Source: a virus (taxonomy: Duplodnaviria; Heunggongvirae; Uroviricota; Caudoviricetes). From it: 50,260 bases of DNA. The DNA lies in the IMG/VR virus record IMGVR_UViG_2728369607_000007, positions 1-50,260 of that record, one strand, 5' to 3'. The notes under the pieces are model-generated. The model searched no databases and was not told the origin of the DNA. It saw only the letters and a list, made by a program, of their open reading frames with translations. A program made the position numbers and the translations under genes. Each line of letters begins with the position of its first letter. Position 1 is the stretch's first letter. Positions 2,188 to 50,260 of the stretch are shown piece by piece.

Positions 2188-2403
2188 ATGTACCAGATGG
2201 AAAAAATCACAACAGGTGTGTCATACACCACGTCAGCGGTGGGAACGGGCTACTGGTTCCTGCAGTTGCTGGACAGGGTTTCCCCGTCTCAGTGGGCGGC
2301 AATAGGCGTGCTGGGGAGTCTGCTGTTTGGGCTGCTGACATATCTGACGAACCTGTATTTCAAGATTAAAGAAGACCGTCGTAAGGCGGCGCGGGGAGAG
2401 TAG
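2188..2403 (+). CDS. S: Phage holin (S21/Stx-phage type, class II), with dual-start motif M-Y-Q-M
   Basis: Protein [26 protein letters not shown]...[15 protein letters not shown] matches lambdoid S21-like holins; RBS GGGAG upstream; followed by lysis genes. Confidence 0.85.
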
Positions 2404-2406
2404 ACG

Positions 2407-3198
2407 ATGAATAAACAATACGAACTGGTTGTTAAAGGGATAAATATTTACCCGGATAAGATTACTGTTACTGTGGCGCTGGAAACTGGTGGGTATACGT
2501 CACTGTTGTTGCCAAATGTGGTGATTGATCTTGATCGTGTTGAAGGTGCCCCGCTGGAGTTTTACGAAGCTGAGGCGAAAAAGAAGGCGAAGCAGTTTTT
2601 CATGGATATTGCTGCCGGGTTATGTGAAGGGAACGAACCGTTGCCGGAAAAGCGCCTCTGTTCAGAAGAGCGGTATACCATACAAATTAACAATGCATAT
2701 AACACGATACAGTCAGAAAAAGATGATATCGAATCACGCATTGAAAAACTGGAGAACAGCGTCGTTGAACTGAATAAAAAACTGTCGGTGCAGATCCCTT
2801 CCGAAGGTGAAAAAAAACGCCGTGATGAGCAGTTCGCGGCGTTTTACGATTATTGCCGGAAAGTGATGAGCAGAAATCTCGCAGAGTGTTTCCGTATTCA
2901 AAAAAACAGAGAGCGCTCTGCAAATAGTGAGATTCTGGATAATTTTTTAAAGGGGACGCATCTCGCCAGTGATTGTTTCATTGCTCATTCTTTTGGTGGC
3001 TTTCATGAGGCCATCAAACATGATGTTGAGAGAAGTCCAGGTATCCTCTGTTCCATTCCCGTAAGCATCGAAATAGACACAAATACGATAACCGGTGAAC
3101 TCGTTACCGCCGGAGTCGGTATATTCCGTCATGAGGGGAACGATGCCAAAGGTTCCTTTACAAAAATCGGGCCGTTCTTTCTGAAGGTAGAGCGATAG
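2407..3198 (+). CDS. Hypothetical cargo protein (263 aa) with central coiled-coil segment, inserted between holin and endolysin
   Basis: ATG 4 nt after holin stop with RBS GGAGAG; AT-rich; no family recognised; 3-prime 252 nt overlap the convergent ORF below. Confidence 0.5.
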   Translation: MNKQYELVVKGINIYPDKITVTVALETGGYTSLLLPNVVIDLDRVEGAPLEFYEAEAKKKAKQFFMDIAAGLCEGNEPLPEKRLCSEERYTIQINNAYNTIQSEKDDIESRIEKLENSVVELNKKLSVQIPSEGEKKRRDEQFAAFYDYCRKVMSRNLAECFRIQKNRERSANSEILDNFLKGTHLASDCFIAHSFGGFHEAIKHDVERSPGILCSIPVSIEIDTNTITGELVTAGVGIFRHEGNDAKGSFTKIGPFFLKVER

Positions 3199-3579
3199 TT
3201 TGTTAAGTACCCATCCGACAGCTCGCTCATTTTGGTTTATTTTCGTATCGCGAAACAAAAATTCGAAGCGGCCAGATGACGCATGGGTGCAACCAAATAC
3301 CGGGGCGTATTCATCAACCTTTGGTGTTCCTGAAAACATGCAGTCCGTGCTCTCGAATGCAGATGAATTGCTGTTGATCCACTTAACAAAAGAAAAAAAG
3401 GTCTGAATCGCTTGTCTGTCTGAATATTCAACAAAATCCTCAAGGTGTGTCTCGATCAGTTCCGGGTGTTTACGAAAGTCATAATATTGACCGGGACGAT
3501 ATTTATGAGTGGTTGTTTTATCCCATGGTTGTGCTCTGCGTCCCTGTAAACGGAGGTCTGCCGCTGGATAGATAAGCAT
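2947..3579 (-). CDS. Hypothetical cargo protein (210 aa), antisense to the late operon
   Basis: Internal ATG at 3579 preceded by GGAG RBS (7-nt spacing); diverse composition; no family recognised. Confidence 0.5.
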   Translation of the reverse strand: MLIYPAADLRLQGRRAQPWDKTTTHKYRPGQYYDFRKHPELIETHLEDFVEYSDRQAIQTFFSFVKWINSNSSAFESTDCMFSGTPKVDEYAPVFGCTHASSGRFEFLFRDTKINQNERAVGWVLNKLSLYLQKERPDFCKGTFGIVPLMTEYTDSGGNEFTGYRICVYFDAYGNGTEDTWTSLNIMFDGLMKATKRMSNETITGEMRPL

Positions 3580-3709
3580 AAGTAATCTCCTGGTGGAATG
3601 TAATCCACGATCATCCGGGGAAATTAAGAACCCGCCAGTGCCCACCACTGGTGGGGTGAAGGCTTAACATATCCAGGGATTCGGAACCGATAAATCCTGA
3701 TAAATATCC

Positions 3710-4243
3710 ATGAACACCAAAATCAAATACGGCCTGTCGGCTGCCGTTCTGGCGCTGATTGCCGCAGGGGCGCCTGCGCCTGATATTCTCGACCAGTTTC
3801 TGGATGAAAAAGAAGGTAACCACACCACGGCATACCGTGATGGTGCGGGGATCTGGACCATTTGTCGTGGTGCCACCAGGGTGGATGGCAAACCTGTCGT
3901 CCCGGGCATGAAGTTGTCGAAGAAAAAATGCGACCAGGTTAACGCCATTGAGCGTGATAAGGCGCTGGCATGGGTGGAGAAAAACATCCGGGTGCCACTG
4001 ACTGAACCCCAGAAAGCGGGGATCGCGTCATTCTGCCCGTATAACATTGGCCCCGGTAAGTGTTTCCCGTCGACGTTTTATAAACGAATTAATGCAGGCG
4101 ATCGCAGGGGAGCGTGTGAAGCGATTCGCTGGTGGATTAAGGACGGTGGCAGAGACTGCCGTATCCGCTCAAATAATTGCTATGGTCAGGTATCCCGTCG
4201 TGACCAGGAGAGCGCGCTGGCGTGCTGGGGTATCGACAGATAA
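3710..4243 (+). CDS. R: SAR endolysin (phage 21 R-type lysozyme, GH24)
   Basis: N-terminal signal-anchor-release segment GLSAAVLALIAAGAPA; E...D...T catalytic triad spacing (EGNHTTAYRDGAGIWT); strong similarity to R21-type lysozymes. Confidence 0.9.
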   Translation: MNTKIKYGLSAAVLALIAAGAPAPDILDQFLDEKEGNHTTAYRDGAGIWTICRGATRVDGKPVVPGMKLSKKKCDQVNAIERDKALAWVEKNIRVPLTEPQKAGIASFCPYNIGPGKCFPSTFYKRINAGDRRGACEAIRWWIKDGGRDCRIRSNNCYGQVSRRDQESALACWGIDR

Positions 4244-4333
4244 GCAGAATATTTTGCTGAAAAATGACGTTGGCCAACGCGGACGGATAACACGAAATCC
4301 TGCGAACTGGCAAAACCTAAGTGAATAAAAGTA

Positions 4334-4366
4334 AAAACCCCGTTTGTTAGCAGCAGGTGGGGTTTT
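4334..4366. terminator. Hairpin AAAACCCC-N16-GGGGTTTT with flanking A/T runs (possible bidirectional intrinsic terminator)
   Basis: Perfect 8-bp inverted repeat followed by TTTTG on plus and A-run on the other side. Confidence 0.4.
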
Positions 4367-4441
4367 GTGTTTCCTGACTCCGGAAAAGTCAAAGGAGAAA
4401 GTGTGTTTGATTTTAGCAAACTGATTCGGGAGATTTGAGTG

Positions 4442-4540
4442 ATGGCTGAAAAATTATCTACCTGGAAGTTCATTCTTATCTGGCTGGTGTTTGTGATTAT
4501 GGTCTCCGGTTATTTCATCGGTCAGATACGCTGGTGGTGA
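4442..4540 (+). CDS. Small hydrophobic peptide (32 aa) between endolysin and spanin genes
   Basis: ATG with GGGAG RBS 8 nt upstream; [32 protein letters not shown]; stop 1 nt before Rz start. Confidence 0.3.
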
Positions 4541-4541
4541 A

Positions 4542-5009
4542 ATGAACCGCGTTCTGTGTGTGGTCATCATTGCCCTGCTGGTGGCCTGTGGTGCGCTTAG
4601 TCTGGGGCTGAATCATTACCGTGATAACGCCATCACCTACAAAGCGCAGCGCGATAAAAAAGCCAGAGAGCTGGAGCTGGCAAACGCAACCATTACTGAT
4701 ATGCAGGTGCGCCAGCGCGATGTTGCTGCGCTCGATGCAAAATACTCAAGGGAATTAGCTGATGCGAGAGCTGAAAATGAAACTCTGCGTGCTGATGTTG
4801 CCGCTGGTCGTAAGCGCCTGCGGATCAACGCCACCTGCCCCGGTACCGTGCGTGAAGCCACCGGCACCTCCGGCGTGGATAATGCAAGCGGCCCCCGACT
4901 GGCAGACACCGCTGAACGGGATTATTTCATCCTCAGAGAACGGTTGATGACAATGCAGAAGCAGCTGGAAGGGGCACAGGACTATATCCGCACTCAGTGC
5001 CTGAACTAA
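4542..5009 (+). CDS. Rz: Inner-membrane spanin Rz
   Basis: Strong similarity to lambda Rz (…[16 protein letters not shown]…[24 protein letters not shown]). Confidence 0.85.
4762..4947 (+). CDS. Rz1: Outer-membrane lipoprotein spanin Rz1, embedded in +1 frame of Rz
   Basis: Lipobox LVVSAC, proline-rich mature region, fully embedded in Rz as in lambda. Confidence 0.75.
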
Positions 5010-5421
5010 GTTTTGCGGATGCGCCGTATCGTCGCTGTATTCCCTCATTAACAGAGACCGCAGCCCGACAGGGAGACTCCTCTGCGCGAGTGTGCGGGGA
5101 TAATCAAAAACGATACACACCGGGGTTTACCGCGTTAACGGAGCGCGGCGTTGTCCCCTCATAGTCGCTGGTCCGGTGCGGTGGTGGAAGAAACCGGACT
5201 ACATTACAAATGATAACCATTATCATTTTGCGGGTCCTCCTGGTGGGGTGGGCCTGAACACGGGGCGGGCGGCGCGGAAAAAGGCGCATTTTTTGATTTT
5301 TATGGCACCATCACCACCAGTGTAAATCATTGATATATATCATAATAAAAATTTTTAGTGTCGAAGCTGATTGTTTTTTGTTCATCACTGGCGTGTATTT
5401 ACATAATTTTCAGGGGAAGTT

Positions 5422-5898
5422 ATGGATCGTGAATTAAAAAATCTGCATCTGAATATTTCCCAACTGGCTGCATTATCCGGTGCTCATCGACAGACTGTCG
5501 CGGCTCGGGTAAAAAACATAAGCCCAGCCGGTGGCCATGAGAGCAATCTCAAACTGTACCGACTGACAGATATCCTTGCCGAGCTGATGAAAGCTCCTCT
5601 GCCTGTAGATAACGAGGAAATGGATCCTCATGCGCGTAAAGCATGGTACCAGTCAGAACGTGACCGACTGAAATTTGAGCAGGAAACCGGTCTGCTCGTG
5701 TCAGTCAGTGATGTCAGGCGGTCCTTTTCTGTCGTGGTGAAAGCGATAGTTCAGGTACTGGAAACCTGGCCTGACCGGCTGGAGAGGGACAGGGGGTGGA
5801 CCGCATCACAACTGAATGAAGTACAGATTGTGGTTGATGAGATCCGCGACACACTGGAAAAGGCAGTCATTGACTGTTGTGATGAGGCCGATATGTGA
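5422..5898 (+). CDS. Terminase small subunit (HTH DNA-binding)
   Basis: Position directly upstream of large terminase with overlapping stop/start; N-terminal HTH-like segment. Confidence 0.75.
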   Translation: MDRELKNLHLNISQLAALSGAHRQTVAARVKNISPAGGHESNLKLYRLTDILAELMKAPLPVDNEEMDPHARKAWYQSERDRLKFEQETGLLVSVSDVRRSFSVVVKAIVQVLETWPDRLERDRGWTASQLNEVQIVVDEIRDTLEKAVIDCCDEADM

Positions 5899-47950: not shown

Positions 47951-48334
47951 CTTGTTGATTAAAAGGCGGCTCAATTCTGAGCTGGGTAGCTGACGGCGGT
48001 AACTGTTTGATATTCCCGATAACGCAAAATTGCGCTGGCTACATCCCTCACATCTGAGGACTGTTAACCAGCAGGCCGGAATATATTCACAAACTACGAA
48101 ATTTTCGTAGTTTAATTACTCGCCAGTTTATCGTTAACTAGTTGATATTTTCGGAAACCTCAATTTGAGGAAGTCGGCGCGGTAACTGTTTTATATTCCC
48201 GATAGCGCAAAAATGCGCGGTCGGGCAGAATGAGCACCACCTCAATCGTGACGGAGAGTGACAACCAGTGACACACCGTGACAAAAAGACGGTTTAACCG
48301 TTCATTAAAAATCGACGTGATTTTGTGCTTTCCG

Positions 48335-48362
48335 GATGACGTGGCCAACGTCATTTTTTAGC
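48335..48362 (+). terminator. Hairpin GATGACGT-ggcca-ACGTCAT followed by T-run
   Basis: Seen directly. Confidence 0.5.
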
Positions 48363-48693
48363 GAAAAATTCTGATTAAGGTCACTGGCTGAATGGTCATA
48401 ATGACCACGCAGACCATCGAGGCAACCATAGCGATCATCGTTACGGTTGGAGCTTTTCCGCCATTGGTGGAAAAGGTGCACATCTGGATCATCATTACGG
48501 TGATCAAGGGTATGTAAAACCCACCAGCCTGATTAAAGGTTAACCGGAAAAAAAATCCGGTAGCCCCGTTATGGGGATCCCCATATCGACATTAACGCCC
48601 CTCATGAATTGGTGCGCTTCCCCCTGGAAAGATTACCCGCCTGTATATTTCTTGTGTCTATTTGTTCCACGTTGTTTCATACAGTGCACCGAA

Positions 48694-48799: not shown

Positions 48800-50260
48800 T
48801 TATTCATCTTTCGGCGCAGAATGCTGGCGACCAAAAATCACCTCCATCCGCGCACCGCCCAGCATGCTCTCTCCGGCGACGATTTTACCCTCATATTGCT
48901 CGGTGATTTCGCGGGCTACCGCCAGCCCTACACCTTGCCCAGGGCGTAAAGTATCAACCCGTTGACCACGGTCGAAAATGACCTCTCGCTTGCTTAATGG
49001 AATACCGGGGCCATCATCCTCGACCACAATATAGAGATGCTCGTCGGTTTGCCTTGCAGAAATTTCGACAAACTCGAGGCAATATTTACAGGCATTATCC
49101 AGCACGTTGCCCATCACCTCGACAAAATCGTTCTGCTCACCGACAAAGCTGATCTCTGGCGAAATATCGAGAGAGATATTGACCCCTTTGCGTTGATACA
49201 CTTTGTTCAGCGCTGAGGTGAGATTGTCCAGCAGTGGGGCGACCGGATGCAGCTCGCGGCTGAGCAATGTCCCGCCGCGCATACTGGCACGATGCAGGTA
49301 GTAGCCAATTTGCTGTGAAATGCGGCTGATTTGCTCCAGCATTACCGGCTCAGCATCACTGACGCTCATCTTTTCACTACGCAGAGAACGCAGCGTACTT
49401 TGCAGCACCGCCAGTGGCGTTTTCAGACTATGGGTCAGGTCGGTGAGCGTCGTACGGTATTTGTCGTAACGTTCGCGTTCACTTTTTAACAATCGGTTCA
49501 GGTTTCGTACCAGACTGGTCAGTTCTCGCGTTGTGGCTGGATTGAGCAATTCGCGGTTATGTTCTTCCAGTTCGCGGACTTCTTTTGCCAGGGCTTCGAT
49601 GGGGCGTAAACTCCACCAGGCGGCGACCCACAGCAGCGGGATCACTAACAGCAGATTGGCTGAGAGCACATAGATAAACCAGCTCCAGACCATATAGGAA
49701 CTTTTTAGCTCCACCGGAATGGTATCCACCACCACAATGGTTAATTTTGGCATCCGCGATGTTGCCGGGTAGACGTTTACTGCCACCGAGTGGGTCATCT
49801 CCGCGTCGTCATCATCTTCCCGCACTTCCTGCAACTGTTGCTGTATCGAATGATCTCCACTCAGCAAGAGGCTGGTATCGTTAACATCCGCTTCAATTTC
49901 ATGAAAACCATTCGATTTCAGCCAGTCAGGCTGGATCATCTTCATCAGCCAGGGCACGTCACGTTGCGCCCATAAAAGCTGCCCGTTCTCATCATAAATT
50001 AGCGTCATGGTGGGGCTTTGCTTGTCGATATTTTCGGGTAACTCGACATGCAACTTATTGTTTTCCCACTTCGCAAGGGTATAGAACAGATTGCTCTCGC
50101 CACGTAACAGCCGAAACGTAGTTTTATCGAAACTGACGCTATAACCGATCAGCGCGACCATTCCGTAGGCAAGCGAAAGCACCAGTACTACCGCAGCCGT
50201 TGCCAACAGAAAACGTACCCGCAGTGAGAGCGGGAAAAAAAGACGCAGTAATTTTTTCAT
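48800..50260 (-). CDS. phoQ: Sensor histidine kinase PhoQ
   Basis: Full-length match to E. coli PhoQ (486 aa), H-box and ATP-binding motifs; start codon at window edge. Confidence 0.95.

Follow-up and report, generated by a model that had tools for sequence, protein, structure and literature searches.

A portable cassette encoding a small membrane protein between the endolysin and Rz genes of an Stx-phage-like provirus, with a nonsense allele in the window's copy

The window, i.e. the whole stretch of DNA analyzed here, is an IMG/VR provirus record of 50,260 bases, and the region under study is the late lysis cassette of an Stx-phage-like lambdoid provirus. The S21-type pinholin is the true holin of this cassette and is separated from the endolysin gene R by a DUF1327 gene and a 233-aa ORF facing backwards. 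Downstream, 298 bp separate the end of R (4243) from the start of Rz (4542), in agreement with the original prediction of an insert of about 300 bp between the two genes. That insert had been treated as one unit. Approximately 200 bp of it do form a cassette, whereas the first ~90 nt (4244-4333) belong to the endolysin module and are common to 933W/Min27-type phages, whose gap holds ant instead. The features of the locus are listed in Table 1. A candidate second cassette at 48319-48373 was rejected, being a weak match to the gap (78% identity over 55 nt) that adjoins the host phoQ gene.

Table 1 Features of the lysis locus in the window.
Feature	Position	Strand	Remarks
Class II (S21-type) pinholin, 71 aa, MYQM dual-start N-terminus	2188..2403	+	phrog_9876; phrog_20 holin, E 2e-40
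Endolysin R, phage lysozyme with a hydrophobic signal-anchor-release-like N-terminal segment	3710..4243	+	PF00959, E 7e-25
R-linked segment (gap1), outside the portable cassette	4244..4333		87-95% identity to ant-type Stx phages
Hairpin of the intrinsic-terminator type, 5′ A-tract and 3′ T-tract	4334..4366	+	predicted to be able to act on both strands
Leader; UUUCCU 4370-4375 pairs with the first SD (AAGGAG 4392-4397) or the internal SD	4367..4402	+
45-codon gene (PHROG 6632): amphipathic helix, kink, TM helix, RWW end	4403..4540	+	broken at codon 12
Predicted antisense promoter: extended -10 TGCTAAAAT at +4410-4418, 17-bp spacer, -35 at +4433-4438	4410..4438	-
Internal Shine-Dalgarno GGGAG from codons 9-10	4428..4432	+	9 nt 5′ of ATG14
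TGA nonsense codon in place of the near-invariant Arg12 codon	4436..4438	+	CGA in 11/11 other lineages
32-aa short form from the near-invariant Met14, TM helix only	4442..4540	+	alternative start GTG 4439
Chi octamer GCTGGTGG from the Arg43-Trp44-Trp45 codons	4530..4537	+	also SD-like GGTGGTG for Rz
Rz i-spanin	4542..5009	+	PF03245, E 2e-50
Rz1 o-spanin lipoprotein, embedded in Rz	4762..4947	+	PF06085, E 7e-21

The original prediction described a 32-aa hydrophobic ORF in the gap, with a GGGAG ribosome-binding site and an end 1 nt before Rz. The ORF lies there (ATG 4442 or GTG 4439 to 4540), GGGAG is found 9 nt upstream of its ATG, and its stop codon (TGA 4538-4540) is followed by one base and then by the Rz ATG. 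From the window sequence alone, such an ORF is within chance, as 71 ORFs of at least 20 aa occur in 4 kb. The ORF proved to be a real conserved coding frame but not a separate gene: it is the remainder of a 45-aa gene cut by a nonsense mutation. The upstream frame in the window reads GTG(4403)-FDFSKLIREI-TGA(4436-4438)-V-MAEKL..., and the first SD ends 5 nt 5′ of this GTG. In phage CP-1639, Stx2_EH2201, and most relatives, codon 12 is CGA, which yields an open 45-codon ORF. The 45-aa protein of this CGA allele matches all 45 positions of the phrog_6632 profile (E 1e-28), and the window frame does so too when an X stands for the stop codon (positions 1-45, E 2e-27), whereas the 32-aa ORF alone covers only positions 14-45 (E 6e-19). 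The uninterrupted 45-codon frame that would make the window's copy a regular member of PHROG 6632 is lacking, given the TGA at codon 12. PHROG 6632 is a phage protein family of unknown function with a 45-position profile; searches of Pfam, NCBIfam, and PADLOC with the 45-aa protein gave no significant match. We also considered database entries of 32 aa as independent truncations and checked three proteins annotated with this length: L230 and L231 are intact 45-codon genes for which the gene caller had picked the ATG, and only the L233/L234 lineage is without the 5′ part.

Conservation of the ORF among phages sharing the insert had been proposed as a check, and the frame is indeed kept across lineages. 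Comparison of the window with copies from E. fergusonii (L133), Salmonella (L129), and phage SEN34 (L006) gave dN/dS values of 0.07-0.20 (pS 0.64-0.73, pN 0.10-0.26), all four copies having the full 45 codons without indels. The frame is open in 11 other lineages, with 45 codons and no indels across 12 lineages; besides the four copies compared, Citrobacter, Edwardsiella, Brenneria, Pantoea, and Symbiopectobacterium have intact ones. Searching 1.84 billion representatives with a profile retrieved 41 clusters (42-54 aa) with a conserved motif, the most conserved residues of the family being E10, R12, M14, and F23. Identity of the ORF among E. coli prophages is 97-98%, versus 90-94% for R and 77-93% for Rz, and the C-terminal RWW is kept although Arg43 uses 4 different codons. 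Judged by these substitution patterns, the 45-codon gene is real and under purifying selection.

The peptide had been predicted to be hydrophobic, which fits a frame that encodes a single-pass membrane peptide and tightly abuts Rz. For the 45-aa protein, AlphaFold2 produced two helices, residues 4-17 and 20-44, interrupted at 18-19 (mean pLDDT of 83.5). Helix 1 is amphipathic; 3.5% of shuffles reach its hydrophobic moment of 0.66. Helix 2 is the TM segment. According to this model, the gene product is a tail-anchored single-pass inner-membrane protein with an amphipathic cytoplasmic helix. RefSeq and most phage records carry no annotation of the 45-codon gene, and neither the peptide nor phrog_6632 was found in the searchable literature. 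The peptide is absent from the accessible portion of the supplements of an EHEC Sakai ribosome-profiling study, and the text of a microproteome preprint makes no mention of prophage or lysis.

Upstream of the gene, the terminator-like hairpin of the original prediction is present (4334-4366), with 15 pairs, 4 of which are G-U, and T/A tracts on both sides. In the window alone, the fold of the hairpin region has a z of -1.67 and the 2 terminator-like sites compare with 2.1 expected from shuffles, both within chance; it is the comparison among relatives, through stem pairing for the hairpin and the dN/dS values for the frame, that makes these elements significant. In a 15-sequence alignment of the hairpin and leader stems, 94.7% of the cells are paired and 17 cells are compensatory, a result that none of 500 shuffles reached, and slid controls of the stem alignment gave 32-65% paired. 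Helix 1 of the hairpin is 98% paired over the 15 lineages, with changes from AU to GC in 6 lineages, from AU to CG in 1, and from CG to UA in 1; the leader stems are too conserved for much covariation. The element thus has the GC-rich stem-loop and U-tract of an intrinsic terminator, in a structure conserved among relatives, termination itself being predicted. Its calculated stability on the + strand is -17.6 kcal/mol for the window variant versus -24.0 kcal/mol for the commonest haplotype, and on the - strand -12.6 versus -16.6 to -18.8 kcal/mol, the substitutions in the window converting two Watson-Crick pairs to G-U. Rfam has no family for the leader or hairpin RNA.

The leader between the hairpin and the start codon is predicted to occlude the first SD. 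Each lineage shows pairing of this SD, at a probability of 0.55-0.98, and the main partner of the same anti-SD in the E. coli lineage is the internal SD. All 14 lineages examined have the same elements 5′ of the ORF: an A-rich run, then a GC-rich hairpin and a U-rich tail, and finally a short stem that pairs with the SD (CCUUG/CAAGG, or, for the lineage of the window, UUUCCU/AGGAGA). GTG or TTG serves as first codon in 12 of 12 close lineages, ATG only in the two distant ones. A promoter scan of 3500-5500 found no sigma-70-like site on the + strand, and the distance from the hairpin to the start is about 35 nt.

The first codons of the gene are unusually constrained at the nucleotide level. 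The commonest codon has a share of 0.89 in codons 2-14, with 1.44 codons per site, versus 0.65 and 2.64 in codons 15-45; invariant codons include Asp3 (GAT, 11/11), Ser5 (AGC, 11/11), Glu10 (GAG, 10/10), and Arg12 (the rare CGA, 11/11). In 9 of 11 lineages, codon 9 is a rare Arg codon (CGG or AGG) and codon 10 is GAG; in a distant homolog the two form AAGGAG. ATG14 is invariant in close lineages and near-invariant in the family. The position of GGGAG 6-9 nt before ATG14 suggests a designed internal start for the 32-aa form. The same stretch may contain an antisense promoter, which could be written into codons 3-12. Its extended -10 motif, TGnTAnnnT, is kept in all 14 lineages (minus strand, codons 3-6). 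The candidate -35 (codons 11-12) is TCAAAT in the window and TCGAAT or TCGCAA in other lineages; it is weak, with 2-3 of 6 matches, and the promoter scan made no call there. From this putative promoter, a transcript of ~75-80 nt would run from about 4403, with complementarity to the first SD, as far as the hairpin, whose U-tract is good on that strand. Codon freezing in the first 14 codons would fit the internal-start and the antisense-promoter readings alike. Another promoter-like site on the minus strand (4525-4496) was called by the scan and set aside, as its conservation is limited to the E. coli lineage and it does not exceed chance.

The original prediction suggested that the peptide could act in lysis timing or as a membrane-active accessory, and a role in lysis timing is possible. 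The unit does recur before an i-spanin gene in lysis cassettes with unrelated holins, endolysins, and spanins, directly in four contexts and ~140 nt away in Edwardsiella. The small gene is joined by TGAnATG to Rz in E. coli (after an S21-type holin and a lysozyme), in the P22-like context of Salmonella (after Phage_holin_2_3 and a lysozyme), and in Citrobacter (after a lambda-S-type holin), and to DUF2514 in E. fergusonii (after Phage_holin_8 and GH19); in Edwardsiella, it follows a lambda-S-type holin and GH108, and the DUF2514 ORF begins ~140 nt past its stop. As a lysis-specific unit, however, the insert did not hold up: the cassette also lies between the baseplate V and W/J genes in SEN34 and Pantoea, 3′ of the gene for a 965-aa LPD38 protein in Brenneria and Symbiopectobacterium, and 5′ of a Rha gene, and the distant homolog P0057 is found in islands packed with toxin-antitoxin modules (ParE, RelB/YafQ, HicAB, and BrnA) that lie 5′ of terminase. 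Altogether, hairpin, leader, and ORF co-occur in 14 lineages and at least 6 genomic contexts. By this comparative evidence, the R-Rz gap holds a portable cassette found in many enterobacterial prophages. Because the cassette also occurs outside lysis genes, its position is no proof of a role in lysis.

We compared the cassette with several known systems. The closest functional precedent in an Stx prophage is hokW-sokW, a type I toxin-antitoxin of the Stx2 prophage Sp5; HokW is silent in the lysogen, reaches the inner membrane after induction, assists lysis, and increases phage release (PMC8621323). The cassette resembles it in specifying a small inner-membrane peptide in an Stx-type prophage, with RNA-level gating and plausibly a cis-antisense RNA, as predicted here, but it has no sequence similarity to hokW and no Pfam Hok match, no sense promoter or mok-like frame was found at the locus, and it sits in the late operon directly 5′ of Rz. 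With 45 aa and a TM helix at 20-44, the ORF has the size (<60 aa) and hydrophobic membrane character of a type I toxin. Classical type I loci have a sense promoter for the toxin, whereas no promoter of its own was found for the corresponding mRNA here.

The lambda S gene is a dual-start holin/antiholin gene with starts 2 codons apart, three TM helices, and an sdi stem-loop over the first SD; its expression is late and depends on Q reading through an upstream terminator. The cassette has two candidate in-frame starts (GTG1 with AAGGAG, and ATG14 with GGGAG, both conserved) that would likewise give a longer and a shorter membrane protein, an upstream RNA structure over the first SD, and a predicted late expression downstream of a terminator that Q would read through. 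It differs in that its starts are 13 codons apart, it encodes one TM helix, and its gene comes after the endolysin. A role as the holin timer gene does not suit a small gene that follows R in a locus already provided with an S21-type pinholin.

Mu gp25 (releasin, DUF2730) is a lysis helper other than a holin, with 99 aa, an N-terminal TMD oriented N-out/C-in, and an acidic cytoplasmic domain of ~70 aa (PMC9239132). The protein studied here is also a small, membrane-tethered, mostly cytoplasmic accessory protein in a lysis cassette with a SAR endolysin, but it has 45 aa, a C-terminal TMD, and no DUF2730 match, and hence lacks the characters of a releasin; moreover, the small gene also adjoins endolysin families other than that of the window (GH19 and GH108). 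Being an optional module at a mosaic junction, the cassette further recalls the lambdoid morons, such as bor, lom, and the ant of the 933W/Min27-type R-Rz gap, and the R-Rz gap of sister phages does contain the cassette in some cases and ant or other small TM ORFs in others. Classical morons have their own promoter upstream and a terminator downstream, in contrast to the cassette, with its terminator upstream and no sense promoter seen. The cassette belongs to neither the hokW family, the holins, nor the Mu releasin family.

In the window, replacement of the Arg12 codon CGA by TGA makes the full-length protein impossible. Among 123 IMG/VR copies retrieved by a flanking-pattern search, 108 have CGA at codon 12 and 15 (~12%) have TGA. 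The ORF region is carried by ~890 of 5,426 complete E. coli genomes (~16%), and the exact 61-nt TGA allele is present in 67 of these carriers, as well as in the Stx2a-converting phage Stx2_499. All TGA copies carry the hairpin changes A4349, G4356, and T4358 (14 of 120 copies). Sites 3′ of codon 12 vary among the TGA copies, which indicates one origin followed by recombination. What is specific to the window is the nonsense allele together with the linked hairpin variant.

As E10 and R12 are among the most conserved residues, the stop removes the most conserved part of the protein, and from its sequence the window's copy is predicted to yield the short form only. The Met14 codon lies 3 nt past the new stop and has its own conserved internal SD; in the L233/L234 lineage, the 5′ part and the hairpin have been lost while AAGGAG, ATG14, and the 32-codon frame have been kept. 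The TM-only short form may still be made in the window, by internal initiation or by reinitiation past the new stop, since GUG-AUG follows directly after the stop, behind a conserved SD. Two readings of the window's allele are a natural variant restricted to the short form and a decaying copy; the loss of the conserved residue and the weakening of the hairpin would fit early decay equally well.

For the cassette in general, the explanation that we find somewhat more probable than otherwise is a tightly gated, late-expressed membrane-active peptide, acting as a lysis helper or as a type I-toxin-like element, two roles that are not mutually exclusive. In lambdoid phages, Q-modified polymerase reads through terminators late in infection. 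Given the position behind a terminator and the lack of a sense promoter, the 45-codon protein would be expected only from the Q-antiterminated late transcript, and the SD-occluding leader, possibly helped by the ~75-80-nt cis-antisense RNA, would throttle its translation further. The missing sense promoter, the terminator, the weak start, and the occluded SD are features of a product kept off in the lysogen, and such heavy gating, combined with the shape of the product, suggests a membrane-active and potentially toxic peptide. This peptide could help envelope disruption at the end of infection, as HokW of Sp5 does. A P2-type baseplate operon without antitermination also holds the sense-strand terminator, which is hard to fit to a purely late-expression model.

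A selfish or defensive type I toxin-antitoxin-like cassette without a dedicated role in lysis, for which the R-Rz junction would be a tolerated landing site, would account for several of the same observations, and we regard it as rather unlikely. Its silence would be ensured by the cis-antisense RNA, the upstream terminator, and the SD-occluding leader, and it would explain the several non-lysis contexts, including the islands of P0057, as well as the minus-strand TGnTAnnnT facing a bidirectional hairpin in 14 of 14 lineages, the frozen synonymous sites in codons 2-14, and the gating through a GTG start and SD pairing. Against it, and unlike classical type I loci, no sense promoter was found from the hairpin to the ORF; PADLOC, Pfam, NCBIfam, and Rfam gave no match; the antisense RNA is a prediction; and the cassette strongly prefers to lie between endolysin and spanin genes, where an exact TGAnATG joins it to spanins of two unrelated families. 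Moreover, HokW is both a toxin and a lysis helper, so this alternative does not exclude the gated late-expressed peptide. That the region is non-coding, a terminator with a spacer or leader tuning Rz translation and a fortuitous ORF, is very improbable and close to refuted. The lack of annotation in RefSeq and most phage records, the last codons TGGTGGTGA doubling as an SD-like element for Rz, and the strong nucleotide-level conservation of the first 14 codons would be in its favor, but the low dN/dS with saturated synonymous sites in codons 15-45, a 45-codon frame free of indels in 12 lineages, a family spanning 41 representative clusters with a conserved motif, and the presence of the gene where no Rz follows all speak for a protein.

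It is also possible, though we doubt it, that the window's own copy is a dead pseudogene without a useful product, its 32-aa ORF being a leftover frame. Several observations would fit this: the near-invariant R12 is replaced by a stop and E10 is missing from any product as well, the three linked hairpin substitutions weaken the stem on both strands, the TGA mutation deletes the G of the putative antisense -35, and the allele is in the minority (~12% of copies). The TGA allele is found in phage genome records, so the full-length protein may be dispensable. On the other side, the 32 downstream codons are open in 15 of 15 TGA copies, an absence of further decay that weighs little because these copies are nearly identical. 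Also on this side are the conserved internal SD with an ATG 3 nt after the stop, an arrangement ideal for reinitiation, the retention of AAGGAG, ATG14, and the 32-codon frame by the separate lineage L233/L234, and the spread of the allele to at least 67 complete genomes with recombination downstream.

The gene is present in about one sixth of complete E. coli genomes; among its carriers are many Stx1- and Stx2-converting prophages as well as the classic phage H-19B. It is largely unannotated and sits within the best-studied type of phage lysis cassette. If it encodes a lysis modulator or a gated membrane toxin, the lambdoid lysis model would gain a component; the timing of lysis also affects how Stx lysogens release toxin. 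The nonsense allele of the window and the intact allele of sister prophages provide a ready-made genetic contrast. If the peptide is inert, annotation has nevertheless missed a gene here, and a separate entry for the 32-aa ORF would be wrong.

The R-Rz gap is itself a hotspot. PhiR12_1 and one EDL933 prophage have a pair of TM ORFs (60 aa and 43 aa) in this gap. The 45-codon gene is absent from EDL933; in another prophage of this strain, the hairpin and leader of the cassette precede an 8-codon ORF and a 37-aa TM ORF that ends in IRWW, again 1 nt before Rz. A more speculative proposal, which we consider improbable, is that PHROG 6632 cassettes, together with the look-alikes ending in (R/K)WW at the same site, form a class, so far undescribed, of small membrane proteins in phage late operons that are portable, lack a promoter, and have dual starts, in which the long form would restrain a short membrane-active form and thereby tune envelope collapse; gating would be by the bidirectional terminator, the SD-occluding leader, and a cis-antisense RNA with its promoter in the first codons, and the window's allele would be a short-form-only variant that has spread in Stx-type prophages. 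The E. fergusonii locus contains a second unit of hairpin, leader, and small TM ORF in tandem, which ends in KWW.

The 45-codon gene between endolysin (R) and i-spanin (Rz) is absent from E. coli O157:H7 EDL933. In one R-Rz gap of this genome, the hairpin and leader of the cassette recur at 85% identity, and 3' of the leader lie an 8-codon ORF and then an ORF for a 37-aa TM peptide (WP_000675931.1, phrog_4493) that has the C-terminus IRWW and ends 1 nt before Rz. This EDL933 gap carries different cargo within the same framework of hairpin, leader, and WW-stop junction. In the E. fergusonii locus (L133:3662-4000), the 45-codon gene is preceded by a second, tandem cassette comprising a GC-rich hairpin of its own, a leader, and a TM ORF of ~50 aa that ends VKWW and is followed by TGATATG.

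A distant homolog of the small gene (P0057, 44 aa, 36% identical) was found in islands (L225-L227:3001-3135), located upstream of terminase and neighbored by ParE, RelB/YafQ, HicAB, and BrnA modules. At these loci, AAGGAG still stands 5' of an internal Met-Met, the minus strand still reads TGCTAGAAT, and both the hairpin and the SD-occluding stem are kept. The 5'-less lineage (L233 and L234, 340-499) has lost not only the first start and the hairpin but also the motif on the minus strand; AAGGAG, ATG14, and the 32-codon frame are retained, the frame ending there in RWR.

Codon 12 (4436-4438), a stop in the window, lies just 5' of the internal start of the small gene, and in the 11 lineages with Arg12 at the homologous position it is always CGA. 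CGA is seldom used in E. coli and differs from TGA by a single transition. The -35 element of the predicted antisense promoter could account for this fixed choice, as could ribosome pausing or RNA structure.

Three Chi octamers (GCTGGTGG), all on the plus strand, fall inside 457 bp directly upstream of the terminase/cos region; the whole window contains 23, versus 2.3 expected from shuffles. In the E. fergusonii and SEN34 copies of the small gene, the Arg43 codon is CGT or CGA, and the Chi formed by the RWW codons is therefore absent.

Coordinates of further features (window positions unless a locus is named)
Feature	Position	Strand	Remark
EDL933 gap cassette	L223:1046-1311 = NZ_CP008957.1 1271945-1272210	-	hairpin, leader, and ORFs
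DUF1327 (ydfR-like) ORF, 263 aa	within 2407-3648		overlaps backwards-facing 233-aa ORF
Backwards-facing ORF, 233 aa	2947-3648	-	
Chi octamer GCTGGTGG	4128-4135	+	in R
Chi octamer GCTGGTGG	4530-4537	+	made by RWW codons of small gene
Chi octamer GCTGGTGG	4577-4584	+	at Rz start
isrK	36183-36259		Rfam match at gathering level
C4 antisense RNA	36281-36368		Rfam match at gathering level

Both the DUF1327 ORF and the backwards-facing ORF lie between pinholin and endolysin, and the latter matched no family in Pfam, PHROG, or PADLOC. Further along, the isrK and C4 antisense RNA matches (36183-36368) are part of a second mobile element that the window carries. The last ORF (48800-50260, minus strand) is, we presume from its sequence, a PhoQ-like sensor kinase; if so, the "provirus" record runs into host DNA at its right end.
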